Shown one piece after another: positions 2,172-22,027 of a stretch of 44,747 nt of DNA. The notes under the pieces were generated by a model. It searched no databases and was not told the origin of the DNA. It saw only the letters and a program-made list of their open reading frames with translations. Each line of letters starts with the position of its first letter. Position 1 is the first letter of the stretch. Origin of the DNA: Escherichia coli (GTDB lineage: Bacteria; Pseudomonadota; Gammaproteobacteria; Enterobacterales; Enterobacteriaceae); NCBI GenBank assembly GCA_029912145.1, contig GCA_029912145.1_4350.1, one strand, 5' to 3'. The position numbers were made by a program, and so were the translations under genes.

Positions 2172-2176
2172 AACTA

Positions 2177-5192: not shown

Positions 5193-5380
5193 TTTGCCAC
5201 CAGAACTAACTCTTTACGCCCGAACGCCGTAACGTTACCGGTTACATCTTCGATAACCAGTTTACCGTTCGACTCGACGTACACCGTATCAACGGCAACA
5301 GGCCGACGGGTCTTAACGTTGAAAATCATGTCGCCAGGTACGATGTCACGTGCTGGTTTGCGGTCATATTCGTGTTTCAT
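5189..5380 (-). CDS. Hypothetical protein (63 aa)
   Basis: ORF translationally coupled (4 bp overlap) to the methyltransferase gene; a promoter-like motif lies just upstream. Confidence 0.5.
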   Translation of the reverse strand: MKHEYDRKPARDIVPGDMIFNVKTRRPVAVDTVYVESNGKLVIEDVTGNVTAFGRKELVLVAK

Positions 5381-5410
5381 TTCTCAATTCCTTATATTGT
5401 TGGTGTAGGA

Positions 5411-5734
5411 CTAACTATAATAGTTCGCTATTAGGGCGTCAACCTGTTTAAACGAACCAACGACAAAAACATTAGCACCACGCTTACGCATCCGCTCGTG
5501 CTCCCGTAACTGGTGTGGATCCGGCTTCGTGCTTTCGTCTTTCTTTATCTCGACGAACCAGATGACGCCGCCGGGGAGAATTACCAGCAGGTCAGGGGCG
5601 CCGGAACGTCCTTCGTAGGAAAGTTTACGAACGAGGCCACCAATGGCCTCGAATCGGTCTTTTGCGTATTTCTGTATTTTGCCCTCAGGCGTACTCATCC
5701 ACACACCCCTCACGTTTCGTATGCGCAATACCAC
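5411..5734 (-). CDS. VRR-NUC domain nuclease (PD-(D/E)XK fold)
   Basis: PDLLV...VEIK core motif characteristic of VRR-NUC; sits beside the DNA polymerase gene. Confidence 0.8.
   Translation of the reverse strand: MVLRIRNVRGVWMSTPEGKIQKYAKDRFEAIGGLVRKLSYEGRSGAPDLLVILPGGVIWFVEIKKDESTKPDPHQLREHERMRKRGANVFVVGSFKQVDALIANYYS
5414..5442 (-). promoter_or_regulatory. Sigma70-like promoter, leftward: -35 TTGACG, 17 bp spacer, -10 TATAGT, with the dyad AATAG-N4-CTATT inside the spacer
   Basis: Motif read directly; it overlaps the last codons of the VRR-NUC gene; same architecture as the sites near 9.2 kb and 12.1 kb. Confidence 0.5.
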
Positions 5735-5779
5735 AGCGCGGACAGATCCGGCGGTCTTCTTCGTAGAACCAGTAAATTT

Positions 5780-5911
5780 TCATTCCAGCACCCACAGATA
5801 AATTGTTACTAACATACCTAATACGGCAACCATCATGCCGTATTGACCCTCGTGACAGTAGACACCGGCGGCGAATCCCGCCAGTACCGCAATAATCAGT
5901 TTACTTGGCAT
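5780..5911 (-). CDS. Possible small hydrophobic peptide (about 43 aa, MPSKLIIAVLAGFAAGVYCH...), overlapping the end of the polymerase gene; not in the ORF track
   Basis: ATG-initiated hydrophobic ORF in the gap between polymerase and VRR-NUC genes; no further support. Confidence 0.25.
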   Translation of the reverse strand: MPSKLIIAVLAGFAAGVYCHEGQYGMMVAVLGMLVTIYLWVLE

Positions 5912-8165
5912 ATCGCTTCATCTCCGCACCTTCAGCTACAAGAGGGAACCCCTCCGCCCATTCCGGCAATTCGCACATCAACCGCTCAAGCTCTGCTACA
6001 TTGTATTCCGGTGAATCTGGTGTCTCGCAGATAATCTCATCGTGTACGTGAAGTACAATCGGGTAGCCGTTTGCTTCTACGTTCAGCAGGGCATTAGCCA
6101 GCAAATCACGGCACAATGCCTGAGTGCAGTTTTCCACCAGTTTACCCGAGTAGGTGTACTGGAACCCCCACTGACGGGTTAGCTGATTTTCGCCCTGGTA
6201 CTTAATGCGCACGTTAGTAGACACCTTCCCGTCTCCATCTGTTTCTTTCGACACGCTCAACCCGACGCCCGGATAAGACATAACGCGACCCGACGGCAAC
6301 GTCATGCGCAACCACCAACCAGCGACTTTGTTGCCGTTGTTGTCCGTTTCTACGTTACGCGAAAACTTAACACCCCGCGGTCCCGCAGTGAACTCTTTAC
6401 CTGGATTGCGGATAGCCGCCATAGCCGCGTCTTCAATATCACGCCAGAAAGCTACTGTTTCCGGGTGTGACTCACGCCACATGCGCTTGATAGCGTCGCA
6501 GGTACGCCACACTTTCTTATCAAGAATATACGATGGTCGGTCATCCTTTTCACCTGGCCGCGGAGGTCGCTTGGCTTCCTGAATACGTGCCCATTCATAG
6601 CCGCGTGCAGTAGCGGCCCATATATGGTTGGGGAATGTCCCGTCCATTGTTTTTGCCATATCAACCAGGTTTAAGCCGAGGTTCTTAGCAAACTGAACGA
6701 AAGCACCGACACCACCAGCATAGCCAAGGCCCAATTCACATGCTTTACCTATCTGGCGTAGGTCACTACGGCTTTCGAGAATGTAATCAGGGTCCATGCC
6801 GAACATCTTACCCGCGGTTACACAGTAAATATCCAATCCCGCACGGAAGGTATCGAGAGCGGTTTCTTCTCCCGCCAGCCATGCCAACCCGCGACCTTCA
6901 ACGTTAGAGTAATCAGCTACGACAAACTTACGCCCGGCTTCCGGTATGATGCAGCTACGCACCGTCGATGCCGTTAGCTTGGCTACATCGAAACGGCGAT
7001 GCGCGCGGCCTTTAAACAACAGGTCGATTCCGTAGGACAATGGGTGTGTTACTCTCCACCAGTCCTTCTCTGACATCCAGTCATAACGTACTTTCTTCTT
7101 TTTATTCTTCGGGTCGTCATGATAGTACCCGCGCGCCAGGTTCTGTGGCTGGAAGCCTTTACCCGCGAACCGTAACGTACGCTTTGCCCCACCGTACTGG
7201 ATACAACCGCGGCGTCGGTCGTCCGACGAGCGGCCTAACAGCAGCGGGTTATATTTCGTGGACGCTGTTGACGCGGCCCCGAGGCGCATTTCGATAATCG
7301 TGCGGGCGTCGTCAGGTAAATCATCATCGGCCAGCAGGTCATTCAGCGTCGACTTCTGTGCGTTGTGTATGCGGTGTGCGGGGGCCAGTTCACGTAGAAT
7401 AGGCAGAAAGTCCTTACCGGTAAGCGAGCCGCCGTATTTACGTTGAGCTTCTTCCTGTAACTGTGCCTTGTGCTTCTCTACGGCTTCAATCGCGGCTTCC
7501 GCCAGTGCGACGTCAACCTTAAATCCGCGGTCGTTGATTAACTGGTCAAGTTCCAGTACACGGTCTTCGAACTCGGAGTTACCCCAACGCGGCAGCTTAT
7601 GGAAGACTTCACGCATCGCAGTGATGTCGCTCACGGCGTACCTGATGAACATCGCCCACTCGTCAGGGTGAGTTTCTGCGGTGTAGCGGCGGATTTTGTA
7701 GTTCTTCGGCGTCGGTTTAGAGAAACGCTTAATCAGAGCCTTGCCGCGTTTATCTTTCGCGTTGTCTGCAGACACGCCCAGCACTTCGCACAGCGCATCA
7801 AGAGAACCCGGCAGCGCGTGACGGAACGCCCAAATCATAGTATCAATGGTGTTACTTACCGGAATATCAAAGCCCCAGCAGTGTTTCATGATTAGGCGAT
7901 CGAAAAGTCCACCGTTGTGCCATACCATCTTAATGCGACTGTTTGGCTTAACCAGACGGCGTAGAGCGCGGTGTAAATCCACGGGCATATCACTGCCGTC
8001 GGTGCAATCCCATACCTGTACAGGCTCGTCGTCAAAAGCGTAGGTACAGATAAGCACTTCGGTAGTTGGATGCTCGGCGTAAGCATAGGAGCCGACTTTC
8101 TTCAAATCGGCTTCGGAGAATGTTTCAAAGTCTAAGTAAAGCAATGTGTTCATAGTCTGTACCAC
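5901..8165 (-). CDS. Family A DNA polymerase (Pol I-like, with 3-prime-5-prime exonuclease domain)
   Basis: Exo motif LYLDFETFS, polymerase motif B (RQIGKACELGLGYAGG), motif C HVHDEI; 754 aa. Confidence 0.95.
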   Translation of the reverse strand: MVQTMNTLLYLDFETFSEADLKKVGSYAYAEHPTTEVLICTYAFDDEPVQVWDCTDGSDMPVDLHRALRRLVKPNSRIKMVWHNGGLFDRLIMKHCWGFDIPVSNTIDTMIWAFRHALPGSLDALCEVLGVSADNAKDKRGKALIKRFSKPTPKNYKIRRYTAETHPDEWAMFIRYAVSDITAMREVFHKLPRWGNSEFEDRVLELDQLINDRGFKVDVALAEAAIEAVEKHKAQLQEEAQRKYGGSLTGKDFLPILRELAPAHRIHNAQKSTLNDLLADDDLPDDARTIIEMRLGAASTASTKYNPLLLGRSSDDRRRGCIQYGGAKRTLRFAGKGFQPQNLARGYYHDDPKNKKKKVRYDWMSEKDWWRVTHPLSYGIDLLFKGRAHRRFDVAKLTASTVRSCIIPEAGRKFVVADYSNVEGRGLAWLAGEETALDTFRAGLDIYCVTAGKMFGMDPDYILESRSDLRQIGKACELGLGYAGGVGAFVQFAKNLGLNLVDMAKTMDGTFPNHIWAATARGYEWARIQEAKRPPRPGEKDDRPSYILDKKVWRTCDAIKRMWRESHPETVAFWRDIEDAAMAAIRNPGKEFTAGPRGVKFSRNVETDNNGNKVAGWWLRMTLPSGRVMSYPGVGLSVSKETDGDGKVSTNVRIKYQGENQLTRQWGFQYTYSGKLVENCTQALCRDLLANALLNVEANGYPIVLHVHDEIICETPDSPEYNVAELERLMCELPEWAEGFPLVAEGAEMKRYAK

Positions 8166-8428
8166 GTCTGATAGTCTGCTTCTGTGAGATGGTCGTCGCG
8201 ATCTTGTTTCTTGTTTTTACCGCGTTCTATGATTTCTGCCCAAGTCCGGTCTGGGTCTGTGTCTTCTATTAAATGTTTATGCTCCTCGCATGCATAGTGT
8301 TTATACCAGTCTCGTACACCGTAAGCTGGAGGGTATTTAGTCATCCAAATTGCTCTAACTTTTTTACCTTCTGCCTTACAAAATTTGCAGTATGTGATGC
8401 GTCTGTATCTCTTAAGTTCCGCTGCCAT
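8150..8428 (-). CDS. Small Cys/His-rich protein (possible zinc-binding), 92 aa
   Basis: CKFC...CEEH pattern; ATG at 8428; overlaps the polymerase start. Confidence 0.5.
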   Translation of the reverse strand: MAAELKRYRRITYCKFCKAEGKKVRAIWMTKYPPAYGVRDWYKHYACEEHKHLIEDTDPDRTWAEIIERGKNKKQDRDDHLTEADYQTWYRL

Positions 8429-8443
8429 TATTTTCGACCCTTA

Positions 8444-8467
8444 GTAAAAAGGCCCAATGAAGGGCCT
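8444..8467 (-). terminator. Rho-independent terminator on the minus strand after the SSB-like gene
   Basis: Stem AGGCCC-TTCATT-GGGCCT followed by TTTTTAC, read on the minus strand. Confidence 0.55.
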
Positions 8468-8487
8468 TAGTTAAATTGATTCAGAAA

Positions 8488-9111
8488 TTAACGGCGGCGA
8501 CGTTCGCGACGCGGTGCGTCTTCTTCGTCGTCTTCCAGGTCATCGACGCTTGCAGCTACTTTAGAACCACCGAACGCTTTACCTTCGCCTACGTATTTAA
8601 TCGCCAGCAGGTTAACGCCGAGGACTTTATATTTCTGGCTGAACCAGATTTCTACGCTTACGTTAGCAACGCAGCCGCTGTAAACCTGTTCACCTTCAAT
8701 CTGTTCACCGTCTACATTGAAGTCCTGCTCTACCTGAGTCTCGCCTTTTTTAGAGGTTACAATCAGCGGTTGTTTCTGTGCCTTCGCTTTGAAGTAGAAG
8801 CCTTCCGGGAAGTCTTCAAACGGATTGTCGCGCTCGGCAATGTCTTTAATCGCGCATTTATCCATGTGCTTACCTTCACCGTAGTTGGACTTCATCCATT
8901 TCTCGGCAGCGGCTGCGCCTAACGCTTCTTCAACTACAGCGTAAACGGTGTCGTAGAGTGCATCGATTTGAGCATGGTCAGACGGCAGGATGATAGTCGC
9001 GCTGTACTGGCCTTTAGTGATTGAGCCATCATCGTTTTCACGGTCTTTTTCACGTTCAAATACGTTAACCCATGCAGTGTTTACTTTACGCAGATTCAGT
9101 TTAATACCCAT
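8488..9111 (-). CDS. Single-stranded DNA-binding-like protein (DUF2815-like) with acidic C-terminal tail
   Basis: 207 aa; C-terminal DDLEDDEEDAP acidic tail typical of SSB partner-binding tips; position within the replication module. Confidence 0.6.
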   Translation of the reverse strand: MGIKLNLRKVNTAWVNVFEREKDRENDDGSITKGQYSATIILPSDHAQIDALYDTVYAVVEEALGAAAAEKWMKSNYGEGKHMDKCAIKDIAERDNPFEDFPEGFYFKAKAQKQPLIVTSKKGETQVEQDFNVDGEQIEGEQVYSGCVANVSVEIWFSQKYKVLGVNLLAIKYVGEGKAFGGSKVAASVDDLEDDEEDAPRRERRRR

Positions 9112-9179
9112 CGTGATTTCTCGCTTTTCAGTTTATATTTCAAAGTTTACTCCGGGAAGCTGCCCGGCCAGTGATTAGA

Positions 9180-9208
9180 ACTATAATAGCTAACTATTCA
9201 GGTGTCAA
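9180..9208 (-). promoter_or_regulatory. Sigma70-like promoter, leftward: -35 TTGACA, 17 bp spacer, -10 TATAGT, dyad AATAG-CTAA-CTATT in the spacer
   Basis: Read directly; overlaps the 3-prime end of the 9194-9427 gene. Confidence 0.5.
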
Positions 9209-9427
9209 ATAAAATTTTGCAATAGGGATTATGTTCTCGAAATTAAGCATATTGGCCGGTTCGAACTCATCCTCTACAGGGTAGTATCGCATCATGGTAC
9301 CGTTCAAGAACGTGAACGATTCCGAGTGTAGATACCCATCCCAGTGCCATACCATCAAAAAATCTTTATCAGTCGGCATTTCATTTACTTGAATCATTCT
9401 AAATCCTCCTCTGTAACTTGATTCCAC
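9194..9427 (-). CDS. Hypothetical protein (77 aa)
   Basis: ORF in the operon, contiguous with flanking genes. Confidence 0.5.
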   Translation of the reverse strand: MESSYRGGFRMIQVNEMPTDKDFLMVWHWDGYLHSESFTFLNGTMMRYYPVEDEFEPANMLNFENIIPIAKFYLTPE

Positions 9428-10635
9428 TCAGGACGTTTGTCATCCGCCGTTGCGACGCATGGCGCACCGGGCTTACGGGTAATGAAGTCTTTCAGTTCTT
9501 CTTCCGGTACAATTTTAACCGCTTCGGTCGGTGTCATAAGAACTACCTTTTGCAGCATAGTACCGTACTTCTCGAATACTGCATCGGTATCTTTCCACGC
9601 ACGATTACCCGGGCGTCCTTCAACCAGTTTATACCCCGGCACTTTCTTACCGGAATGTAACGCAGCAGCCATAGCTTTCTCAACCTTGTCGATGTGCTGG
9701 CGCAACAACGGCAACTTCTCATACTCAGCTACGAGTTGCTCTGGCGTAAGCTCAAGTGCAAAGTCGTCCTCCAGTTCTTCCGCCAGCCCCGCGTTAACGG
9801 TTTTTGTACGCGCTGCGCATTGTTCAGAGAACCGACACCACTGACAACCATCTACCGACGGCTTGAAGTCCGACGCTTTCAGGTTCTTTTTACCCCGGAA
9901 ATAGGCATCAAGAGCCAACAGCGCCCGTTTCTGTGCAAACTTAGCGAACAGTTCCAGACCTTCAACCGAGATGTCCCACTCCGATGCACCGCCAGCGTAC
10001 GGCTGGAAGATGACCAGTCGAACGGTTGTTATGCTATAACGTCTCTTGAGTCGGCGATAAACGCCGAGAGCATAAAGCATAAGCTGCTTGTTTTCTTTCG
10101 CTTCGACACGATGCCGCCCGGTTTTCAGGTCGCAGATGATAAGCATGTGTTCGTCGGTGTTAGCCAGTTCCTGTATGGCAACAAGGTCAGCAGTTCCGAA
10201 CGTCTCAACGCCTTCATACCCCGGATGCAATACCTCAGTAAGATTAACACGCATTTCCAGCTTGGCGTAAGTCGCTATATCGATAATCGCCTTGCAGTAG
10301 TCGGTGTACTTGCGCACCTGCTCAATCATGTCCGCCGTAATCAGTACCGCGCCTTTCATCGGGCTGATTAGTGCCTTAATCTGGCCTTTGCCTTCATCCA
10401 GCACGTAAGCACCGACTTCACGCTCTAACGGCAGCGCAGTTCCGCGAATATAAGCGTTGAGATGGACCTCAGCTATGGTGTGCATTGCCGTGCCTAATAC
10501 AGCGGCTTTACCTGACGTGTTAGGGATATCTTTTTCACAGGCCAGTGATGCCGCGCAACTTAGCCACTTTTTAGCCCCTGACGGCGACAGTAAGGCATGT
10601 ACATCGTTATTGCCGCCGCGTTCTTTAAGAATCAT
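9394..10635 (-). CDS. PD-(D/E)XK nuclease, DUF2800 / Cas4-like exonuclease with C-terminal Cys cluster
   Basis: DLKTGRH...E.K nuclease core and C-terminal CQWCRFSEQC cysteine cluster; 413 aa. Confidence 0.75.
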   Translation of the reverse strand: MILKERGGNNDVHALLSPSGAKKWLSCAASLACEKDIPNTSGKAAVLGTAMHTIAEVHLNAYIRGTALPLEREVGAYVLDEGKGQIKALISPMKGAVLITADMIEQVRKYTDYCKAIIDIATYAKLEMRVNLTEVLHPGYEGVETFGTADLVAIQELANTDEHMLIICDLKTGRHRVEAKENKQLMLYALGVYRRLKRRYSITTVRLVIFQPYAGGASEWDISVEGLELFAKFAQKRALLALDAYFRGKKNLKASDFKPSVDGCQWCRFSEQCAARTKTVNAGLAEELEDDFALELTPEQLVAEYEKLPLLRQHIDKVEKAMAAALHSGKKVPGYKLVEGRPGNRAWKDTDAVFEKYGTMLQKVVLMTPTEAVKIVPEEELKDFITRKPGAPCVATADDKRPEWNQVTEEDLE

Positions 10636-10994
10636 CGTAAACGCTCCAAATACAAGTTTAATGCCTGTAACTGTTCTTCTGTAGGAATGAAAGAATCATC
10701 GCGATGTAAGTCGCTTAACTGTTGCAACATTCCTGCGAACTGACGTCTTGCGTCAACAGCGTCCATGTGATGCTTTTCACTTTTATATATTAATGTTTTC
10801 GGGTAATCCTCAAGCCTGCCAGACGATTTATTCACGCGGAGCGCACGAGCTTCATGCACAATGTGAATGTACTTTTTGCCGTTTTGTAACACAGTAGCTA
10901 CGCCGCTGCTCTTTCTGCGGTCGCCGACTGTGTAAACCTTGTCGCCACTACGCAGATTAAGCCACCATTTATCGGTCATACCCTGTTCTCCCAC
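10632..10994 (-). CDS. Hypothetical protein (120 aa)
   Basis: ORF with 4 bp overlap to the downstream gene. Confidence 0.5.
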   Translation of the reverse strand: MGEQGMTDKWWLNLRSGDKVYTVGDRRKSSGVATVLQNGKKYIHIVHEARALRVNKSSGRLEDYPKTLIYKSEKHHMDAVDARRQFAGMLQQLSDLHRDDSFIPTEEQLQALNLYLERLR

Positions 10995-11248
10995 TGGTCA
11001 ATTAAATGTCGTGTCTGGTGCTGGCAGTGCATGGCCCAGCTATACATCGACTCGAAGACATAAAAGTCAGGCTTGGCAAAAGTCGTGCGCTTAATCTGCG
11101 ACACGTGACGGCCTATATCTTTGGGCCTGGGTACTTTGCCTAAGTACGCCATCTCTTCCATCTGGTGCGCACCGGAAGGAGCGCGCAATAGCCATAGAGC
11201 CTCCGTGTTATCCCGTCGGTCAATACCTCGGTAGAGTTGGTAAATCAT
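10976..11248 (-). CDS. Hypothetical protein (90 aa)
   Basis: ORF in operon context. Confidence 0.45.
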   Translation of the reverse strand: MIYQLYRGIDRRDNTEALWLLRAPSGAHQMEEMAYLGKVPRPKDIGRHVSQIKRTTFAKPDFYVFESMYSWAMHCQHQTRHLIDQWENRV

Positions 11249-11290
11249 ATTACGACCCTCTGTTAAAGCAGCCAGAAGGCCGCGGGATAG

Positions 11291-11794
11291 TTATTCTTCT
11301 TCGAAATACTTGTTCTTAATCGCCGTCAGGCGTTTCAGGTATTCAGCCAGGTCTTCGTCTTTAATCGCGGCAATCTTCATTTTCTTACCGGTGAACTCCT
11401 CCAGCAGTTCATCGGAATCGTCGCACGCAGCATCGCTAGGACCTTCGTTAATTGCATCGTCGATAGCCTGAATCTGGTCACGAAGAGACTGGTAATCGAC
11501 CTCTTCTTTCTCTTCTTCTGGTTCTGGAGTCGGCTCCTCTACTTTAGCTTTACGCGGCTTGCGTTTCGGCTTCTCTTCTTCTTCTGCTGGTTTAGCGTCA
11601 ACGATGTCTTCACCTTCAACAGGGATTTCTTTTGTTGCTTCTTTTTCGCACTCAGCTACCGCTTCTTTGGTATACACTACCGTCTCTACTTCTAACGGCG
11701 CTGCAACTTGTGCTGACTGTTTCGCACTGTTCGCAGCAATCAGTTCATGTGCAACTACGAAACGTTCCAGTAATTTTAAGAATTGTTCTAACAT
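11291..11794 (-). CDS. Highly acidic protein with a short basic patch (167 aa)
   Basis: Runs of Glu/Asp (EEEKPKRKPRKAKVEEPTPEPEEEKEE, DDSDELLEE). Confidence 0.5.
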   Translation of the reverse strand: MLEQFLKLLERFVVAHELIAANSAKQSAQVAAPLEVETVVYTKEAVAECEKEATKEIPVEGEDIVDAKPAEEEEKPKRKPRKAKVEEPTPEPEEEKEEVDYQSLRDQIQAIDDAINEGPSDAACDDSDELLEEFTGKKMKIAAIKDEDLAEYLKRLTAIKNKYFEEE

Positions 11795-11816
11795 TTGTTT
11801 CTCCTGTTTATTTAGG

Positions 11817-12044
11817 TTACTCGCCGTCGCCTTCTGTAAGGCTATCGTCTATTAATTCAAATTTACCGTTTGAGTGTTGGATAGCTTCTTGCCCGCAATG
11901 GTCGCAAACCACCAGTTTATCGAATCCGTCAAACTCGTCCCCGACTACGCAAGAAAGTACAAATTTATGTTTTGTACATACTTCTTGATGTTCACCGAAA
12001 ATTACCCGGAAACATTTAGTTATAGCTCCAGTGATTATGTTCAT
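11817..12044 (-). CDS. Small Cys-rich protein (75 aa), first gene of the leftward operon
   Basis: ATG at 12044 downstream of the leftward promoter; CDHC and C..C pairs suggest a zinc ribbon. Confidence 0.5.
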   Translation of the reverse strand: MNIITGAITKCFRVIFGEHQEVCTKHKFVLSCVVGDEFDGFDKLVVCDHCGQEAIQHSNGKFELIDDSLTEGDGE

Positions 12045-12072
12045 ATCTTCACCTCTCGTTTGGTATGGGCTA

Positions 12073-12102
12073 ACTATAATAGCGAACTATTCATGATGTC
12101 AA
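12073..12102 (-). promoter_or_regulatory. Sigma70-like leftward promoter: -35 TTGACA, 18 bp spacer, -10 TATAGT, dyad AATAG-CGAA-CTATT in the spacer
   Basis: Read directly in the divergent intergenic region 12045-12166. Confidence 0.55.
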
Positions 12103-12106
12103 TGGG

Positions 12107-12135
12107 CTTTTCTAAAATAATTAATATGGTACTAT
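12107..12135 (+). promoter_or_regulatory. Candidate rightward promoter for the HTH gene: -10 TACTAT preceded by AATAT-GGTA-CTATT half-dyad, weak -35
   Basis: Back-to-back with the leftward promoter; -35 is poor, suggesting regulated expression. Confidence 0.35.
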
Positions 12136-12166
12136 TCACACATCAACTGACTAAGGAGTAATTGAC

Positions 12167-12382
12167 ATGCAACCATCCGAACTAGGCATCCGTGTAGAGC
12201 AACGCCGTAAAGAACTCGGCATCTCCCAGCGCCGTCTGGCGGTCCTGACCGGCGTTTCCCAGGGCGCAATTAACCAGCTGGCTCTCGGTGTAACTCAGGA
12301 CGTCCGCCCGGCAACGTTGTTTAAACTGGCGGAAGTGCTGGAAGTAGACGCTAAGTGGCTGGCGTTCGGTGAAGGGGCTTGA
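12167..12382 (+). CDS. XRE-family helix-turn-helix transcriptional regulator (Cro/CI-like), 71 aa
   Basis: HTH segment ISQRRLAVLTGVSQGAINQL; RBS AAGGAG before the ATG; divergent from the leftward operon. Confidence 0.85.
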   Translation: MQPSELGIRVEQRRKELGISQRRLAVLTGVSQGAINQLALGVTQDVRPATLFKLAEVLEVDAKWLAFGEGA

Positions 12383-12398
12383 CGCCCCTTTCTTTTTA
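12374..12398 (+). terminator. Rho-independent terminator after the HTH gene (GGGGC-TTGA-CGCCCC followed by TTTCTTTTT)
   Basis: Stem-loop plus T tract overlapping the stop codon. Confidence 0.6.
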
Positions 12399-12593
12399 TT
12401 GCACCTTTATCGGGTATCTTTTGCGAAACTTACCTAACCCGCAGTACACGCTGTAAGCCTCTGTGTAACTGAACACAACATGATACCCGCGCCCATAAGG
12501 AACTACGTTAAGAACTTCTACTACTTCGCCTCTGTGGTTGGTGTATTTATTACCTTTCAGTTCGTCGCTTACTTCTTTAAATTTACCGCTCAT
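12396..12593 (-). CDS. Hypothetical protein (65 aa)
   Basis: ORF overlapping the end of the primase-helicase gene by 4 bp. Confidence 0.4.
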   Translation of the reverse strand: MSGKFKEVSDELKGNKYTNHRGEVVEVLNVVPYGRGYHVVFSYTEAYSVYCGLGKFRKRYPIKVQ

Positions 12594-14857
12594 TCCAAAT
12601 CCTCCTCTGTCACTGTCAACATTTCATTCGGTTCGTATATTGTCTTTGGAATCTTGTTATCAGTTATTCTGGTGTTCAGCCTGTAACGACCTGGGATTAT
12701 CTGATTGTTTTCGTCAGTACCCGGAACAAGATACCCGGCCTCAACCATTTTCTTAATCTTCCCGCGTTCTATGGCTTCTTTGGAGTTAAACGCCTTTGCG
12801 TTGGGGTCTGACTGTGCGAGCTTATTCGCCGCGGCGACTGTGATGCCTTCGTTGCCGTTGTAGGTTCCTTCCGCCAGTTCAAACGCCGCGAGTATCGTGG
12901 CCTCCGAACTGTTGACGGCGTTCTCTACGGTTTTACGTACATTTTCTTTACCTTCTTTCGTCAACCCTTCTTCCCGCTCTTTCTCCTCGTCAGTTTTGAA
13001 CGGCTCGAAACCCCACGGCATCAACACAAGCGCCTTGTGTGGTTCAGGCAGGTCCAGGTTTACGATTGTGCCGTATTCCTCTGTGCTACCCAGGAACTCA
13101 ACCGCTCGGTATTCTTTAGGTGGCGGCGCTTCACGGAACTGTACCGACTCCAGCACCATGCCAACCGTCTTCTGCTGAGGCCCGTGCTTGAATTTCGAGT
13201 GATATACGTTTATCTGACGGTCGGTTGCACGTTCGATTGTCAGTTCCACATCAACACCCGCATACAGCGCCCCACTGCCGCGTGCTTTCTTTCCACCCTT
13301 CGGCGTATGGTGGACAACGCCTACTGCGGCTTTAGTTGCATCGCGTACTTCTTTCAGAATGGCGATAACTTTACCCATGCCGATTGCTGTTGATGAACTG
13401 TTCTCGTCGAACTTATCAATCGTCAGTGCCAGGGTCTGGTTAAGGGTGTCGAACGCAACCATGCCAATTGGCTCGTCGCCAGCAGTTTCGCGCATTAACT
13501 TAATCAGGCTTTTAAGTTTGCCGACTTCGCCCATATCGATGACATGTACATAATCTTTACCTTCCTCGCCGTATTTAGCCGCGAGCGCATCAATACGTGT
13601 ACGTGTGGCTGCCCCACCCTCGCCGTCGATATAGAAATGGTGACAACGCTGGGTGTCAGCCCCTGCAAACCGGTATCCGGCGGCGCTCAGGTACATCATC
13701 CCCAGCGTATAGAATGATTTGTACGTGCCCGATTCTCCGACGATACCCCAGATACAATCCGACGGCATGTACCCCTCAACGACGAAATCAGCCTTTACCG
13801 GCTCCGGTAACTCGTCCTCCTCTGAGTCCTCGTCGTCTTCCAGGTCGTCGAGGCTGCATGAGACAGATTCACGCGCCCCCCAACCGATGGCCTCTGCGAC
13901 TTCACTGAACGGCAGCCCGGTCGCATCGCACGCGTACTTCCACACCTCTTTCGGTGACAGGCCTTCTGTCGCCGTAATGTCTGTGTCGTGAATCATGGTT
14001 ACGTTTGGCGCTTCATACCCCTCGCGCGGGAAGCACAGCAGGAAGTCGTCCGGGCGCGGTGTCGGGTCGCTGTAGTTTTCGGCATGTTCCGGTGTGGCTG
14101 GCATCTTAAGGCCGCGCGGCGTCATGACGCCGCCGTACTCAAACGCCAGTGCTTCAAACGCGTCTGTAAACGCGGTGCGCAGTTCTTCCGGTATCTGGTA
14201 ATCCGATGCGCTGCTAACGTCAACGGCTGGGATGCCTTCCAGTAACTCGTTCGGGTCGATCAGGTCGTTGCGGCGCGACCAGATAACGGTAGCGCCGACC
14301 GGCGGCAGGTACATCGGCTGCGACAGAGTGAACCCGCTGCGGTCCGCACCCATGCCTTTGAAGAAGTGCTCCAGCAACCCATGACGAACACGGATGATAT
14401 CACCACCCTCAACTGGGCGGGCCAGCGGCATGACGACGCGAAAGCGAGGCGACTCATCGGTATGTGATGCCGTGGTGTAGAGACACATCGCCCGGCGGCT
14501 GCGATTAACCAGGCGCACCGCTTCCTGGTACTCTTCCGGTGTTGCACTGTCGAAGTCCAGATACGCCAGCGACGATTTGCTCACAGACGCGTCACAGCGA
14601 TAGAAGAAGCCTTTACGCGCTTGTTTAAAGCCACCGGTTTCCGGGTCTTTTACGGTGCTGTGTGTAGAATCGCACGCGGCCGTGATATAACCGGGCGCAG
14701 TCTTGGGGTTAATCCCGTCACGAACGGCATCGAGCGGCTGGATTAACTCTTTCAGGTCGTCCAGTGTTGCCGTGTGTGCGGTTCTGACATTTATATCCTT
14801 TTTCCCCGCCCGCGCGTTGCGGCGTGACCACGAGTAGGATAAAATTACATCGGACAT
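12590..14857 (-). CDS. DNA primase / replicative helicase (primase-polymerase-like N-terminus, RecA/DnaB-like P-loop domain)
   Basis: 755 aa; Walker A GESGTYKSF, downstream VHHTPKG motif, acidic linker; N-terminal domain consistent with D5/VirE-type primases. Confidence 0.75.
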   Translation of the reverse strand: MSDVILSYSWSRRNARAGKKDINVRTAHTATLDDLKELIQPLDAVRDGINPKTAPGYITAACDSTHSTVKDPETGGFKQARKGFFYRCDASVSKSSLAYLDFDSATPEEYQEAVRLVNRSRRAMCLYTTASHTDESPRFRVVMPLARPVEGGDIIRVRHGLLEHFFKGMGADRSGFTLSQPMYLPPVGATVIWSRRNDLIDPNELLEGIPAVDVSSASDYQIPEELRTAFTDAFEALAFEYGGVMTPRGLKMPATPEHAENYSDPTPRPDDFLLCFPREGYEAPNVTMIHDTDITATEGLSPKEVWKYACDATGLPFSEVAEAIGWGARESVSCSLDDLEDDEDSEEDELPEPVKADFVVEGYMPSDCIWGIVGESGTYKSFYTLGMMYLSAAGYRFAGADTQRCHHFYIDGEGGAATRTRIDALAAKYGEEGKDYVHVIDMGEVGKLKSLIKLMRETAGDEPIGMVAFDTLNQTLALTIDKFDENSSSTAIGMGKVIAILKEVRDATKAAVGVVHHTPKGGKKARGSGALYAGVDVELTIERATDRQINVYHSKFKHGPQQKTVGMVLESVQFREAPPPKEYRAVEFLGSTEEYGTIVNLDLPEPHKALVLMPWGFEPFKTDEEKEREEGLTKEGKENVRKTVENAVNSSEATILAAFELAEGTYNGNEGITVAAANKLAQSDPNAKAFNSKEAIERGKIKKMVEAGYLVPGTDENNQIIPGRYRLNTRITDNKIPKTIYEPNEMLTVTEEDLE

Positions 14858-14915
14858 GTTGTATTTCCTTCAGCAAGTAATTTGGCCTCGGCGTTCACCG
14901 CGTCGGGGCTTTCTT

Positions 14916-15149
14916 TTATTCCAGGTCTTCTAAAGTAGCGGTCATTCCGCGAACTTCAGCAAAGGCACTATATTTCCCGCCAACATTTTTCACGACGCCA
15001 GATTTAACCAGCACTTTTAACGACCCTTCAATAATGACGGAGCTATAGTACTTAAAATAACTGCGGCGCAAGTCGATAACGCTGCACGACCCTTTTTTAC
15101 GTGTCAACGAAACGACCGCCGTAAATACGCGTGACTGAAACTCGGTCAT
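14916..15149 (-). CDS. Hypothetical protein (77 aa)
   Basis: ORF following the HTH gene in the leftward operon. Confidence 0.45.
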   Translation of the reverse strand: MTEFQSRVFTAVVSLTRKKGSCSVIDLRRSYFKYYSSVIIEGSLKVLVKSGVVKNVGGKYSAFAEVRGMTATLEDLE

Positions 15150-15349
15150 TTCACGTTCTCCTTAATCCACGCTTCCACTTTCTCCGGGTCGAACGTACCG
15201 GGCTGCCGGCGACCCATAATGCGGATACAACAATCAGGGAACCTCCCACTCTTTAACCAGTTATTAAGCGTGCGGCGAGTAACCCCGATACGCTCAGCTA
15301 CTTCATTCTGTGTCATTCTCAAACCCTCATTATCAGTTAACGAAACCAA
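15146..15349 (-). CDS. Helix-turn-helix DNA-binding protein (AlpA/excisionase-like or MerR-like)
   Basis: HTH segment EVAERIGVTRRTLNNWLKSG; true start may be the internal Met (about 15316). Confidence 0.6.
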   Translation of the reverse strand: MVSLTDNEGLRMTQNEVAERIGVTRRTLNNWLKSGRFPDCCIRIMGRRQPGTFDPEKVEAWIKENVK

Positions 15350-15752
15350 GTATACATTGCGAATAATGGGAAATCAAACATAATCGCACCTATTGACATT
15401 ATGAAAATCTTCGTTTAAGGTGCTTCTATATCTTAGTTACTTTGATTCCTGTTCACCTTGTAATACCCGCTTGAAACGCAGCGGCGCCAAAGCGCCAGCG
15501 AAGTGTTAAGCGGCAGATTACTGAACATAAGAATTACCGTAACTTTCCTTCCGTAGTATCTCTGGTTGCCCTGGGCAAGTTCTATTCTCATCGGCAGCAT
15601 ATCTCTTAAGTATATGATAATTAAAAGTTTCTATAGTTGCCGTGAGCAATGTTGAGAGTACTTCACTCCGCTGGGGTGGGCTAACGCCCACCCACTGCGT
15701 TGCGTACTCTTTTAAGAAACGAAAGAATCACAGCGGCAACGTAACTATTCTC

Positions 15753-15781
15753 TTGCACACCCCAACATAATAGGGTACTAT
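15753..15781 (+). promoter_or_regulatory. Early-type promoter: -35 TTGCAC, 17 bp spacer, -10 TACTAT(TCA), with dyad AATAG-GGTA-CTATT
   Basis: Read directly, about 30 bp upstream of the first rightward gene. Confidence 0.6.
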
Positions 15782-15815
15782 TCACTTATCGAAACGAGAC
15801 AGAGGAGTGAGGGTT

Positions 15816-16007
15816 ATGTTTAAGAAGGGTCAGTTGGTTAAAACTAAACGCGGAGGGCAATATGTATTAGTGTTGCAGGACGAGAGCGAGTATGACGAGG
15901 ATAATCTGGTTGACGTATGGGGTCTGGTAAGAAAGAAAACTGGGTTCGCCTCACGCGATAATTTAGAACTCATCGGCAACAATTTTAAATTCAAAGGGGC
16001 GAAGTGA
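15816..16007 (+). CDS. Hypothetical early protein (about 63 aa)
   Basis: ATG at 15816 with RBS GAGGAG upstream; first gene after the promoter. Confidence 0.55.
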   Translation: MFKKGQLVKTKRGGQYVLVLQDESEYDEDNLVDVWGLVRKKTGFASRDNLELIGNNFKFKGAK

Positions 16008-16222
16008 TGATTAAGGTGGAGATTAAATCGAAAGAGACAAAACAAACTGTAGCCAGTAAAGAATTCAACAGTGAATCCGAAATAGGTCCCTGGTTAAAAC
16101 AGTACGTACATTTGCAGACGGTTTATATCATTCTGACGAAGGCAAGTGGCGTTACCGTTTTACTAGAACCGGCATCGAATAATGATGCTTGTGCCGACGA
16201 CTCTGAGGGAGGTTGCCGTTAA
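16004..16222 (+). CDS. Hypothetical early protein (72 aa)
   Basis: ATGA overlap with the upstream gene. Confidence 0.5.
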   Translation: MMIKVEIKSKETKQTVASKEFNSESEIGPWLKQYVHLQTVYIILTKASGVTVLLEPASNNDACADDSEGGCR

Positions 16223-16531
16223 TGAAAATTCGAATAACTGACCGCAGGCTTATAGATTTCGGTATCTCGGTAGGTGATGTTTTTCTGGCGTTCAGCAGCA
16301 ACCATTATGGTTTTATGATTGAGTACAAAGGGTCATTATTGTTCGTGTATCGGGATGAATGCGAGGTTCTGGTATGAGAGAAGCATTCGAACGGGGGGCC
16401 ATCGTCGAGGGTCTGCCGGTTAATAAGGGTTCGAAGAAAGAGTACCTGAACGTTAAGACGAGTCTCGCGTGGCGGGCGTGGAAAGCTGGTGCGAATGTAA
16501 TGGCTGGCGCATTTGAGAAGAGAGGCGATTT

Positions 16532-16717
16532 ATGAGCAAGTGGATTAAGTGTAGTGAGCGGATGCCGGAGCCTTATGAATACGTTCTTGTAACTGATTGT
16601 TTTGTTGGCTGTGAGGTTATGCGTGTTAATTCAGATGGCTACTGGGGGCCTGCAAAGAGTTTATATCACGGTGATATAACGCACTGGATGCCGTTACCTG
16701 AGCCGCCGGAGGTGTGA
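16532..16717 (+). CDS. Small phage protein, DUF551-like (61 aa)
   Basis: W.PLPEPP C-terminal motif characteristic of DUF551-type phage proteins. Confidence 0.5.
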   Translation: MSKWIKCSERMPEPYEYVLVTDCFVGCEVMRVNSDGYWGPAKSLYHGDITHWMPLPEPPEV

Positions 16718-16750
16718 TGTTCAATAGTTTGGGATTTTACTGAGTGACTT

Positions 16751-16790
16751 ACGCTGCTGTGTAGCAGCGTATCATTTTTCTCATTTTTGT
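16751..16790 (+). terminator. Rho-independent terminator (ACGCTGCT-GTGT-AGCAGCGT followed by a T-rich tract)
   Basis: Perfect 8 bp stem with T tracts downstream. Confidence 0.6.
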
Positions 16791-16864
16791 TCTATTTCAC
16801 CAAACGCAACAATCGAAGCGACTATTGCAGGAGATGCAACAACACAAACACCAATAAAATTTAC

Positions 16865-16893
16865 TTGCACACTAAGATAGAATAGGCTACTAT
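16865..16893 (+). promoter_or_regulatory. Early-type promoter: -35 TTGCAC, 17 bp spacer, -10 TACTAT(TCA), dyad AATAG-GCTA-CTATT
   Basis: Same architecture as the 15753 site; follows the terminator. Confidence 0.6.
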
Positions 16894-17226
16894 TCATTTA
16901 CACAAACTAGAGGAGAGACAGAGGATGAAAGATTATAGCGAAGTGACTTTAGGCGAGTTGCAGGACGAGTATGAAGATATGCTCTACCCGTTCATCTGCG
17001 ACGGAGATTACAACGGCGTCTATAACGGAGTGAGTGAAGAATATGAATACTAAAAACGAGCATTTGATTAAAGTTACCCCGGTATGGTCGGCGTGGGTTA
17101 TCGCCCCGACGGAAAGCACGTACCGAAATTTGTGTTCACTGATGAGAAAGTTGCGCGTGAGTGGCTTCGTGCAGGCAAGAAAGGTGAACGCGGCGTCATG
17201 AAGGTTGGGTTAGTAGGAGACGTAGT

Positions 17227-17691
17227 ATGAGTAACAAAAACGAAGTATTCGAGTACCTGATTGACCAGCTACGGCAGCAGGTAAATAACAACCAGTGCGA
17301 AGACCTGGCGCACGAGGTGCAGTCACTTAAGAATCAGTTACGTGACGCGTTGGAGCTGGTGGCTGAGTTACAGAGCGAGTTACAACATCAGATTGACCTG
17401 GCGGCAGGCGTGTATAGATGGTCTACCGCGCATTTCGACGAGAAAGGTAAAGTCTTCAAGGTCGAGAGTGGGGTTAAGACAGAGCAATCCGGTTGCCGGA
17501 AGGAAGATACCCAGGGATGCGAGCATGATTGGGTGCTAGATGAAAAAGGGGACTACTTCATTTGCGCTAAATGCGGTAAGCAAGAATCGGAATTGAGCGA
17601 TTGCCAACACGCTAATACCGTCGGTTTGCGCAAAGGCTTTGCGCCGGGTTTTACTAAAAAGTGTCTTGATTGCGGGGCTAAACTGAAATGA
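17227..17691 (+). CDS. Coiled-coil protein with C-terminal Cys-rich zinc-finger-like region (154 aa)
   Basis: N-terminal heptad-like region; CEHDW...CAKCGK...CLDCG cysteine pairs. Confidence 0.55.
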   Translation: MSNKNEVFEYLIDQLRQQVNNNQCEDLAHEVQSLKNQLRDALELVAELQSELQHQIDLAAGVYRWSTAHFDEKGKVFKVESGVKTEQSGCRKEDTQGCEHDWVLDEKGDYFICAKCGKQESELSDCQHANTVGLRKGFAPGFTKKCLDCGAKLK

Positions 17692-17892
17692 CCAGCATCT
17701 TATTTATCTGGGTACTGTCCGCAGGCCAGATGCACCTGGCGGCATCATAAACGTTTTACTCGATGGAGGCGTGCCAGTCAGCGGCACGCGCCGCTGAGAA
17801 CGCGCACTTTCTGTTTCAGGGTGACAAGCCCAACGATTCAGAGGTACGCGCTATCTGCTCACCTAAGCGACTTGGAAAACAGGAGAAATAAC

Positions 17893-18096
17893 ATGGTACA
17901 GAGATATTCTAAGTATGGGTCCGACAACCATTTCATTGACCGCCACGGGAAGTGGGTTAAGTTTGAGGACTACCAGAATCTTGACCTAAAGCTGTTGGAA
18001 GTTGAAGCCGAGTTACAGAAATACAAGGACCAGTTCCCGGATTACGTCGAGTGCGCGAACTGTGGGTCAGTTACACATGTGGGAGGGGTGGAGTGA
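17893..18096 (+). CDS. Small protein, paralog A (67 aa)
   Basis: ATG at 17893 with RBS AGGAGA; similar in sequence to the next gene. Confidence 0.5.
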   Translation: MVQRYSKYGSDNHFIDRHGKWVKFEDYQNLDLKLLEVEAELQKYKDQFPDYVECANCGSVTHVGGVE

Positions 18097-18275
18097 TGGT
18101 GCATAGATACGAAAACGACCACGGCGATATGTTTCAGGCCGCGGGAGGGCGCTGGGTCCTATACGAAGACTACGCGGAGCTGGCGCGTAAACTGCGCGAG
18201 CTTGCTAAGCAGGTAGTAAACAGTCCGTGCGACTGGAAGACGGATGAATTAGCGCGCGAGATTCTGGACCTATGA
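18096..18275 (+). CDS. Small protein, paralog B (59 aa)
   Basis: ATG overlaps the upstream stop (TGATG); shares the pattern G.WV..EDY..L..KL.E with paralog A. Confidence 0.5.
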   Translation: MVHRYENDHGDMFQAAGGRWVLYEDYAELARKLRELAKQVVNSPCDWKTDELAREILDL

Positions 18276-18565
18276 GCCTTGCAACTGACATCCTGAAACG
18301 GAGCGGCCTTGCGCCGCTGTCGCCGAGAGCGAACACACGAATATACAAGCGTCGCCGTAACGTGCTGTACCCAGAGATTCAGGACAGACGTAAAGCTATC
18401 CGCGCCTGTGGATTCCAGAACGGGAAGGCTGTGAATCTCGGTGAGTTTAAAACGCAGGAACGTGCGGCTATCGCTAATCGGTTATTTAATTACTGGAAAT
18501 CGCTGGGTTATGAAGATATTCCGACGAAACCACAGAGACGACAATACATCTGGCGTCATAAATAA
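18272..18565 (+). CDS. Hypothetical protein, possibly AP2-like DNA-binding (97 aa)
   Basis: Weak resemblance to AP2-type domains (GKAVNLGEFKTQERAAIA); low certainty. Confidence 0.4.
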   Translation: MSLATDILKRSGLAPLSPRANTRIYKRRRNVLYPEIQDRRKAIRACGFQNGKAVNLGEFKTQERAAIANRLFNYWKSLGYEDIPTKPQRRQYIWRHK

Positions 18566-18595
18566 ACCGTTATTAAGATAATTTCTAACCGTGCT

Positions 18596-18635
18596 ATCCT
18601 CCAGTTACTGCATACTTAATACGCACCTGGAGGAT
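18596..18635 (+). promoter_or_regulatory. Hairpin (9 bp perfect stem ATCCTCCAG / CTGGAGGAT) that sequesters the GGAGGA ribosome-binding site of the holin gene
   Basis: Perfect complementarity read directly; the RBS lies in the 3-prime arm, 6 nt before the TTG start at 18641. Confidence 0.4.
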
Positions 18636-18640
18636 TCATC

Positions 18641-18949
18641 TTGGATAAATTTACTGAAACAGTGACAGGCTGGCTTCTCGCTGCCGCGCTAGCCGGAGGG
18701 GTAATCGGACTACGACAACATAAGTCTGTTATTTCTGGCCCCATCGACGGATTCTGCTTTATCGCAACCGGCTTCACTTGCGCTGTATTCGGCGCGCCTC
18801 TTGCCGCTCAATGGTTCGGTATTACCGGAGAGCGCGAGATAGCTGGCCTCGGATTCATCATCGCAATTCTCTGGATGCCCATCTATTCCCGTCTCTCCGG
18901 TATCGTCTCTGGAGAATACATCGCTCGTCGAGGAGGCACAGATGAATGA
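18641..18949 (+). CDS. Holin candidate (three predicted transmembrane segments, 102 aa, TTG start)
   Basis: Hydrophobic segments; immediately upstream of the second membrane protein and endolysin. Confidence 0.6.
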   Translation: MDKFTETVTGWLLAAALAGGVIGLRQHKSVISGPIDGFCFIATGFTCAVFGAPLAAQWFGITGEREIAGLGFIIAILWMPIYSRLSGIVSGEYIARRGGTDE

Positions 18950-19214
18950 GTTATTCTGGTTCGGTGGTATGCTGGTAATCGGGGGCACATCGCTGTTTAA
19001 TGTGTATCATCCCAGCGTGGACGACGGATTATTTGGCCGGGTGCTCTATATCCTGACTGCCATCGTCTGTGCTGCCGGATGTATCCACCTGTTACAGGGC
19101 AGCATGTCACCAACGCTGCCTGAGACGTTAATCACATTAGTTGCGCTGCGTCAGATTCGCCAGGTGTGGCTGTCATACGGAGGACATAAGCGTGTCTCGA
19201 AATATTTCAGATAA
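18942..19214 (+). CDS. Second small membrane protein of the lysis cassette (holin/antiholin-like, 90 aa)
   Basis: Two hydrophobic segments; overlaps both neighbours. Confidence 0.5.
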   Translation: MNELFWFGGMLVIGGTSLFNVYHPSVDDGLFGRVLYILTAIVCAAGCIHLLQGSMSPTLPETLITLVALRQIRQVWLSYGGHKRVSKYFR

Positions 19215-19680
19215 TGGATTGCATTTTACCGCCGCGTTCGAGGGATTCCGAGGAACTGCGTATCGCGCTACACCGAATGAGAAGTACCTGACTATTGGGT
19301 ATGGAAGCTATGGCCCGCATGTTAAGGCGGGGCAGACCATCACTCCAGGACAAGGCCTCCTGTTACTTAATCGCGATATGGCTAAAGCCGTAGCTGCGGT
19401 TGATGCGGCAGCGCACCATTCACTGACACAGGCACAGTTCGACGCTGTGTGTGACCTGGTCTACAACGCAGGCGCTGGCGTGATTGCCGCTACCACGGGC
19501 ACAGGTAAGGCGCTGCGTTCTGGTGACATCGAGACGCTGCGGGCTAAGCTGACACTGTTCATCAACCAGAACGGCAGACCACTACTCGGCCTGCGTCGCC
19601 GTACAGCAGGTCGTCTGGCGCTGTTTGACGGTAAACCGTGGCAAGAGGCGGAGGCAATTGGGCGCGCGGTGAAAGGTTGA
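19192..19680 (+). CDS. Endolysin, lysozyme-like (glycoside hydrolase family 24-like)
   Basis: GTG start at 19192 preceded by RBS GGAGGA; catalytic-region pattern FEGFRG...TIGYG typical of phage lysozymes. Confidence 0.85.
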   Translation: MSRNISDNGLHFTAAFEGFRGTAYRATPNEKYLTIGYGSYGPHVKAGQTITPGQGLLLLNRDMAKAVAAVDAAAHHSLTQAQFDAVCDLVYNAGAGVIAATTGTGKALRSGDIETLRAKLTLFINQNGRPLLGLRRRTAGRLALFDGKPWQEAEAIGRAVKG

Positions 19681-19745
19681 CACCTAAGACTAATCCGACG
19701 ATACTTAAATCACCTCCTGTTCCATCCCTCTGCTCTCCAGTTTTA

Positions 19746-19779
19746 TCCCGGCCCTGACCCAGCCGGGATTTTTTTTTAT
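19746..19779 (+). terminator. Rho-independent terminator after the endolysin (CCCGGC...GCCGGG followed by T9)
   Basis: GC stem followed by a run of nine T. Confidence 0.7.
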
Positions 19780-19861
19780 CTATTTTCGGTAATGACTAGT
19801 TGACTATTACCCTCGACCCTATTATATCTACTTCATCGACAACGAGAACGGAGTAGAGAAG

Positions 19862-20059: not shown

Positions 20060-20204
20060 TGAAAATCACAGATATCGAAGCATTCAAAGACGCGCAACTG
20101 ATGGCACGTATCGCCGTTAGTAACCTTAGCAACAGCATCCCGGCAGACGCGTTCTGGTTCGCTGCGATGCAGACACTTAAAGCAGCATATGCAGGAGAGA
20201 AGAA

Positions 20205-21992: not shown

Positions 21993-22027
21993 GTACATCC
22001 CGCCCAATCCCCTTATATAATCTATTT

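Follow-up and report, generated by a model that had tools for sequence, protein, structure and literature searches.

In the 44,747-nt stretch of DNA analysed here (the window), one palindrome, AATAG-N4-CTATT, recurs inside promoter-like sequences beside a gene for an XRE-type helix-turn-helix protein and elsewhere, raising the question of whether this dyad is the operator of a phage-encoded regulator and, if so, of which one. The window derives from a Kagunavirus (Guernseyvirinae), a phage of a virulent group: a 4-kb query around the locus matches Escherichia phages BEU33 and BEU35 at 100% identity and many Kagunavirus genomes at ~90–96%. In the related phage fEg-Eco06, the counterpart of the XRE gene (12167–12382, + strand) is annotated as ‘transcriptional regulator cro’ and lies between the leftward replication module and the helicase-primase gene. 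No CI or integrase is present in the annotations of related genomes, and we found no description of the regulation of Kagunavirus or Jerseyvirus phages in the literature.

A palindrome inside predicted promoters

Counting the dyad against a shuffled background, a check suggested together with the original prediction, revealed a pronounced excess: the exact 14-bp dyad occurs seven times in the window versus 0.01 expected, and 11 copies with up to one mismatch are present versus 1.06 expected, counts that none of 100 shuffles reached in either case. When all 5+5 dyads in the window were enumerated, AATAG-N4-CTATT was by far the commonest, the next most frequent being GC-rich terminator hairpins. 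All seven exact copies lie at gene junctions, and each is followed, after 20–60 nt, by a ribosome-binding site and a start codon. The concern that the dyad might be just as frequent in unrelated coding regions does not apply, because no exact copy is located within unrelated coding sequence of the window.

The same 14-bp palindrome is found inside at least eight host-type promoters of the phage. In these predicted promoters, sigma-70-like hexamers lie upstream of a gene start at a spacing of 17–18 nt, within the 17 ± 1 nt usual for sigma-70 promoters, and match the consensus at 10–11 of 12 positions in one group (class A) and at 7 of 12 in another (class B). The three leftward copies noticed in the original prediction are real, but six further sites had been missed: four that match the dyad exactly (15769, 16881, 27267 and 36813) and a pair of dyad-like ones with a −35 hexamer at their centre (19795 and 27358). 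What had been taken as the mark of a leftward operon is thus a genome-wide set of 8–10 promoters on both strands.

In class A, the dyad occupies the promoter spacer. The three minus-strand elements at 12.1, 9.2 and 5.4 kb were all recovered where they had been predicted, and they are the top three sigma-70-like matches in positions 1–20000 of the window (11, 11 and 10 of 12 positions); in each, the dyad ends with the T that begins the −10 hexamer. P_A1 (12073–12102, − strand) consists of a −35 TTGACA (12102–12097), an 18-nt spacer filled by the perfect dyad AATAGTTCGCTATT (12078–12091) and a −10 TATAGT (12078–12073), and is predicted to drive a 75-aa gene (12044–11817) and the genes downstream of it as far as the exonuclease. 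P_A2 (9180–9208, − strand; TTGACA-17-TATAGT), with the dyad AATAGTTAGCTATT at 9185–9198, has its −35 hexamer in the last codons of a 77-aa ORF, whose stop codon supplies the TAG of the AATAG half-site, and would drive the DUF2815 gene (9111–8488). P_A3 (5414–5442, − strand; TTGACG-17-TATAGT), with the dyad AATAGCGAACTATT at 5419–5432, lies wholly within the last 10 codons of the VRR-NUC gene (...QVDALIANYYS*) and is predicted to drive a 63-aa gene together with the Dcm methylase, helicase and toprim genes. The spacers had been described as containing GAATAG; the 5.4-kb copy reads TAATAG.

The overlap of the 5.4- and 9.2-kb copies with the ends of upstream genes had also been recognised correctly, and the suggestion that both act as internal promoters is plausible. 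The 13-kb operon in which they had been placed, however, is not one unit: the XRE gene, with a terminator-like hairpin (12371–12391) behind it, interrupts it, and so does a terminator (8449–8470) after the DUF2815 gene. The latter, with a T-run on the minus strand, stands right after the DUF2815 gene and before the DNA polymerase gene, and its position inside the supposed operon implies attenuation or read-through. Near-identical GC hairpins, AAGGCCC(C)-loop-(G)GGGCCTT, mark several module borders (2176–2197, 8449–8470, 26932–26952 and 34348–34367), that at 34348 being reported on both strands by the scan. The leader transcribed from the 9.2-kb promoter would contain the hairpin CCGGGCAGCTTCCCGG (~9150–9167, − strand), which is conserved in every Kagunavirus locus compared and, in altered form, in Jerseyvirus SE2. 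The 75-aa protein encoded at 11817–12044 (− strand; phrog_32657) has cysteines spaced as in a zinc ribbon (C..C, then CDHC) and gave no match in a Pfam search.

Class B promoters follow the design TTGCAC-N10-AATAG-NN-TACTATTCA with zero mismatches in four of four copies. They correspond to TTGCAC-N17-TACTAT, in which the right half of the dyad forms part of the −10 hexamer TACTAT, and at 7 of 12 consensus positions they are absent from the output of the consensus scan. Two point rightward, into small genes of early type with the holins and endolysin beyond them: P_B1 (15753–15784, + strand; dyad 15769–15782) is predicted to drive small genes from ~15807, and P_B2 (16865–16896, + strand; dyad 16881–16894) the genes from 16925 through the holins and endolysin (18641–19680). 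The other two point leftward, with P_B3 (27265–27296, − strand; dyad 27267–27280) predicted to drive a 94-aa gene (27240–26956; phrog_1273) and P_B4 (36811–36842, − strand; dyad 36813–36826) predicted to drive superinfection-immunity, metallophosphoesterase, PNKP-type phosphatase and AAA-like genes (36798–34372). An oriented module, ATAATAG-N4-CTATTCA, is common to all sites, and since it is used in opposite orientations to transcription, and in different registers, in class A and class B, we regard the dyad as an element apart from the promoter hexamers.

Other traces of the motif occur near the rightward promoters. An isolated half-site, ACTATTC, lies just upstream of the P_B1 −35 hexamer. 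Many relatives (L004 and L005, for example) carry an extra exact dyad, gtcAATAGGTTACTATTtgg, which has no −35 hexamer, is preceded by a GGTGTAACAGGT repeat and stands immediately upstream of a terminator at ~16750; its counterpart in the window (16722–16735) has decayed to AATAGTTTGGGATT.

Two additional one-mismatch copies have the centre TTGA and so fall on the −35 hexamer TTGACT. The first, ACTAGTTGACTATT (19795–19828, + strand), is centred on the −35 of a TTGACT-17-TATATC promoter that comes after a terminator and before the small-gene/terminase/portal module; this site is kept in relatives, with Jerseyvirus SE2 carrying the mismatch in the other half-site (AATAGTTGACTAGT). The second, AATAGTTGACTTTT (27358–27391, + strand), is centred on the −35 of a TTGACT-17-TAAGCT promoter preceding the spanin, scaffold and capsid module.

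The XRE gene has a promoter of its own. The rightward element with a weak −35 that had been proposed in front of this gene was confirmed as AATATGGTACTATTCA at 12123–12138, 30 nt upstream of the start codon. It contains a one-mismatch dyad, AATATGGTACTATT (12123–12136, + strand), a −10 TACTAT (12130–12135) and a poor −35, and is a degenerate member of class B. The centre of this dyad is 45 bp from that of the P_A1 dyad, and its mismatch (AATAT) is kept in nearly all of 36 related loci. A conserved imperfect dyad in the gene's own promoter would be a signature of autoregulation.

The XRE protein and the dyads of related phages

The 71-aa XRE protein consists of a single Pfam HTH_3 domain (E 2.3e-12, residues 11–65 of 71) without any further domain. 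Its best PDB sequence match in a phmmer search is 434 Cro (1zug/2cro/3cro; E 2.1e-6, residues 6–68 aligned to 4–64), which is likewise 71 aa long. An AF2 model of the protein (pLDDT 77, five helices) gave 2cro as its top Foldseek match (TM 0.72/0.78, 36% identity), with the restriction-modification (R-M) controllers C.AhdI, C.BclI and C.Esp1396I among the other fold matches. The protein resembles the 434-Cro type both in being a single HTH_3 domain of ~70 aa and in its sequence and fold similarity to Cro/CI N-terminal domains, while on the DNA side the dyads at 12078–12091 and 12123–12136 flank its control region. The dyad appears to behave as the candidate operator of a dimeric phage regulator that had been postulated. 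As to the binder, the original prediction had named the XRE-like protein or a second HTH protein (15146–15349); on the comparative evidence the former, encoded next to the dyad, is the best candidate, and the latter is unlikely.

To follow the dyad across lineages, we used a sample of ~90 loci in all, in which the Kagunavirus set comprised 37 IMG/VR loci and fEg-Eco06 (L001); complete genomes included Serratia phage Tsm2 and Salmonella phage TS6, and the lineages represented by L074 and L080 were seen as fetched loci with flanks. Within the Kagunavirus set, the half-sites are almost invariant and the central N4 is variable, as are the ends of the upstream genes and both the length (4–5 nt) and the sequence of the stretch between the −35 hexamer and the dyad. 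AATAG/CTATT is common to orthologous promoters of E. coli Kagunavirus, Salmonella Jerseyvirus SE2 and Serratia phage Tsm2; in Tsm2, no dyad was counted exactly, a one-mismatch search revealed sites in promoter context, and the promoter adjoining the XRE gene contains a degenerate dyad only. No AATAG dyad was found in Salmonella phage TS6, which has TATTA-N6-TAATA in the same promoter position (three exact copies versus 0.01 expected). Since TS6 and SE2 differ and Tsm2 shares AATAG, dyad type follows the phage lineage and not the host.

Further lineages show that the two halves of the dyad change together. L080 carries AATAC-N4-GTATT, in which both half-sites are altered in concert, and its layout is preserved, with one perfect and one imperfect operator-like site flanking the XRE control region; L074 carries five exact copies of TAATA[G/C]-N4-[G/C]TATTA. 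A symmetric change of both halves, as in L080, is what would be predicted for a dimeric binding protein. Among the loci compared, no lineage with dyads embedded in its promoters lacks an XRE gene.

The protein side did not yield a recognition code. Helix 3 of the XRE protein (VSQGAINQLALG) is invariant in Kagunavirus variants down to ~79% identity, save for one A-to-V change, and a homologue search returned Kagunavirus proteins only (at least 78% identity), which permitted no transfer of specificity from distant relatives. A simple code relating helix 3 to the half-site was considered and rejected, as no consistent co-variation was seen across Kagunavirus, Jerseyvirus and TS6: Kagunavirus (SQGAINQ) and Jerseyvirus (SQSLITH) have the core dyad in common despite unlike residues in the recognition helix, whereas Jerseyvirus and TS6 have similar XRE helices and different dyads.

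Relatives of the protein in other phages also adjoin operators, and the geometry of these is the same. A CI-like repressor of L084, 37% identical to the XRE protein in its N-terminal domain, adjoins 3+3 tandem ATAAG-N4-CTTAT sites, and a CI-like repressor stands beside such sites throughout L084–L090. The L084 locus, a 48-kb, high-GC temperate phage contig, has a textbook immunity region (9704–10843) with divergent genes for a 70-aa Cro-like and a 296-aa CI-like protein, three ATAAG-N4-CTTAT operators 23–24 bp apart between them, and a second triplet 5.6 kb away. The lambdoid Cro of Klebsiella phage GZ7, 44% identical to the XRE protein, adjoins sites readable as ACAA-N6-TTGT, which we take to be the 434 operator pattern.

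Proposed repression through the dyad and alternative readings

On balance, we consider it probable, with some reserve, that the dyad serves as operator for a symmetric dimer encoded by the phage, the likeliest candidate being the 71-aa 434-Cro-like XRE protein, which would act as a repressor of the dyad promoters. It would most likely keep every non-structural transcription unit in check. That the XRE protein binds the dyad, that it represses and when it does so are proposals of this model, which builds on three registers of the dyad, inferred from the hexamers with the start site assumed to lie ~7 nt after the −10. In class A (12.1, 9.2 and 5.4 kb), the dyad spans about −25 to −12, with its centre near −18.5, filling the spacer and touching the −10; in class B (15.77, 16.88, 27.27 and 36.81 kb and the XRE promoter), it spans about −19 to −6, with its centre near −12.5 over the −10; and in the imperfect copies at 19.8 and 27.36 kb, it spans about −40 to −27, with its centre near −33.5 over the −35. 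In all three registers, a bound dimer would compete with RNA polymerase.

The proposed sequence of events is as follows. On infection, host polymerase would fire the dyad promoters, and the Cro-like protein would build up from its own weak promoter. It would then occupy the perfect operators, shutting down the replication, early, immunity and lysis units, and at higher concentration it would bind the one-mismatch operators, curbing its own synthesis and perhaps also the 19.8- and 27.36-kb promoters. A weak promoter combined with the weakest operator for the XRE gene itself would be the classical layout for delayed shut-off followed by autoregulation. Repression is the parsimonious reading because class A promoters are near consensus and should fire unaided, and the dyad is placed to compete with polymerase.

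Beside the missing recognition code and the degenerate dyad next to the Tsm2 XRE gene, further points count against the model. Class B promoters, with only 7 of 12 sigma-70 positions matching, might need activation rather than repression, and if every mapped promoter were repressed, late-gene expression would not be accounted for. No strong sigma-70-like site preceding a structural module was found by the consensus scan in 19000–38000, a region with many intrinsic terminators (25365, 26932, 29964 and 34348). In the only Kagunavirus RNA-seq study, that of phage K1B4, which is coarse and unsynchronised and whose supplement covers host genes only, the DNA polymerase, Dcm methylase and immunity genes, all downstream of dyad promoters, are in the ‘late’ class.

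These points bear on the possibility that the XRE protein has a dual function at the same operator, repressing the strong class A promoters and activating the weak class B or −35-site promoters, which we regard as unlikely. The poor consensus match of class B and its absence from the consensus scan would fit such a function, as would the R-M controllers among the fold matches and the ‘late’ assignment of genes downstream of dyad promoters in the coarse RNA-seq. The dyad, however, covers the −10 in class B and the −35 in the imperfect copies. Proteins that both repress and activate have precedents in the R-M controller (C) proteins, lambda CI at PRM and phi29 p4, but the activators known in this family sit next to polymerase or upstream of it, not atop the −10 or −35.

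A different binder, the second HTH protein, is improbable to a greater degree. This protein (Pfam HTH_17; 15149–15316, − strand, 56 aa from its ATG) is encoded by the first gene of a leftward immediate-early unit, whose promoter, TTGATT-17-TATACT (15377–15349), is the one early promoter lacking a dyad, as expected if the regulator is made first. Kagunavirus and Jerseyvirus, which have the dyad in common, also have one and the same recognition helix in this protein, and the protein is absent from TS6, whose dyad differs; an HTH gene, probably this one by gene order, is also ‘early’ in the Kagunavirus RNA-seq study. Against this, three or four recognition helices of HTH_17 occur among loci that keep the same dyad: in the Kagunavirus loci L015 and L020, the helix is changed (VSTMTLNRW and VSPMTLNRW), yet each has five exact dyads. 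No HTH_17 homologue was found in the complete Tsm2 and TS6 genomes or in the fetched flanks of L074 and L080, although Tsm2 keeps AATAG dyads at orthologous promoters and L074 and L080 have promoter dyads with no homologue within 10 kb of the XRE gene. Moreover, the 56-aa protein is of the MerR/excisionase-like type with no evident dimerisation domain.

Other roles for this protein fit no better. We rejected the idea that it is an AlpA/Q-like antiterminator with a loading site between −35 and −10 after comparison with the AlpA structure: according to the AlpA structure paper, AlpA reads DNA through residues at positions 128–142 and, as a monomer, recognises a single 6-bp site, GGGACG, and antitermination of the Q/AlpA type needs one asymmetric site and a protein of sufficient size to extend to the RNA exit channel, unlike the symmetric dyad and 56-aa protein here. 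MerR-type activators have 19–20-bp spacers and a C-terminal coiled coil, whereas spacers here are 17–18 nt and a coiled coil of this kind is lacking from both HTH proteins. A gene-poor gap of ~450 bp (15350–15806) separates the HTH_17 operon from the rightward early genes; a search for repeats in 15300–15850 gave nothing convincing as a second operator type.

Still less probable is that the motif serves only as a promoter peculiar to the phage, without an operator of its own, and is recognised by a phage RNA polymerase, as the fBC-Eco01 genome paper has it, or by host polymerase that a phage factor redirects. The dyad does partly overlap the −10 element, and the motif has been reported by PHIRE as seven ‘phage RNAP promoters’ in fBC-Eco01; in vB_EcoS-Golestan, PHIRE gave seven promoter sequences. 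However, the annotations of the relatives fEg-Eco06 and SE2 include no RNA polymerase gene, and the window has no unassigned large ORF of the expected size. Good sigma-70 hexamers with 17–18-nt spacing flank the motif, which occurs in both orientations and in three registers relative to these hexamers, and its halves change symmetrically between lineages with the centre left free, the signature of a dimer and not of a polymerase.

That a host transcription factor binds the dyad is the least credible of these readings. The hosts of these phages are closely related enterobacteria with most regulators in common, which would allow for it; yet SE2 and TS6 both infect Salmonella and have different dyads, while one dyad is common to phages of E. 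coli, Salmonella and Serratia. To our knowledge, no E. coli regulator has ATAG-N4-CTAT spacing, and OxyR-type sites use N7. A reading of the dyad as an RNA hairpin was discarded on inspection, which gave only a 5-bp A/U-rich stem and placed the dyad upstream of the predicted transcription starts.

Relation to known systems

The preferred reading, repression by the XRE protein, would most likely be no new mechanism but the familiar pairing of a Cro-type repressor and its operator, here deployed across the whole genome of a virulent phage. The closest system is that of 434 (and of P22 C2/Cro): 434 Cro is likewise 71 aa long with a single HTH_3 domain, and ranks first among the matches in both sequence and fold. 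The 434 operators (OR/OL) are 14 bp long, with conserved outer half-sites and a free centre, as in the dyad here. In both cases, operator sequences overlap core promoter elements and the cro-type gene is divergent from the promoter with the better operator. Unlike 434, the phage of the window has no CI and no OR1–3 but two dyads 45 bp apart, its half-site is AATAG and not ACAA, and its operator-like sites lie over 8–10 promoters of a virulent genome rather than being confined to an immunity region. The Cro/CI-like switch of the original prediction is therefore not borne out: with no CI-type partner and only two dyads instead of a tripartite operator, the locus is not a Cro/CI bistable switch, and the divergent gene encodes the 75-aa cysteine-rich protein.

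Two other groups of regulators are comparable in part. P1 C1, with its many scattered operators, and mycobacteriophage L5 gp71, with its ‘stoperators’, are dispersed-operator repressors of temperate phages. They resemble the system proposed here in that one small repressor acts at many genome-wide sites on many transcription units, but their sites are asymmetric and maintain lysogeny, whereas those described here are symmetric, inside core promoters and in a virulent phage. The R-M controller proteins are small XRE-fold dimers (here a fold match and a proposed dimer) that bind dyads in and next to their own promoter with graded affinity, which creates a time delay and autoregulation; unlike the present case, they act at one or two promoters only, activate before repressing and belong to an R-M context, which is lacking here.

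The motif itself is already in print. The fBC-Eco01 genome paper (PMC9825357) lists seven PHIRE hits with the consensus tgAATAGTa-ccTATTat-T, the same motif as the dyad described here, and attributes them to a phage-encoded RNA polymerase without linking them to symmetry, sigma-70 hexamers or a Cro-like protein; seven PHIRE promoters are also given in the vB_EcoS-Golestan paper. What is new is the dyad symmetry, the sigma-70 context and the link to the Cro-like protein, which correct the published label of a phage-RNA-polymerase promoter and provide a concrete predicted transcription map for Kagunavirus and Jerseyvirus, a large group of phages that are candidates for therapy.

A 71-aa protein, a 14-bp operator and 8–10 promoters in three registers would form a compact system in which to study how temperate Cro logic is reused in a lytic setting for global timing. 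A bolder reading, which we hold to be possible though rather unlikely, is that one Cro-type protein is the master timer of a virulent phage. One operator in three registers, with perfect and deliberately imperfect copies, would then shut off units, or switch on weak promoters, in a fixed order, as a portable module used in either orientation that co-evolved with the protein across Guernseyvirinae (AATAG/CTATT, AATAC/GTATT and TATTA-N6-TAATA). The lineage variants (AATAG, AATAC and TATTA-N6-TAATA) offer ready-made candidate repressor/operator pairs, possibly orthogonal, for synthetic control.

Finally, the stretch that separates the leftward P_B4 from the tail-chaperone gene at 36950 contains a match to the Rfam int-alpA RNA (RF02996; 36861–36925, + strand), which scores 36.6 bits, the gathering score being 35.8.
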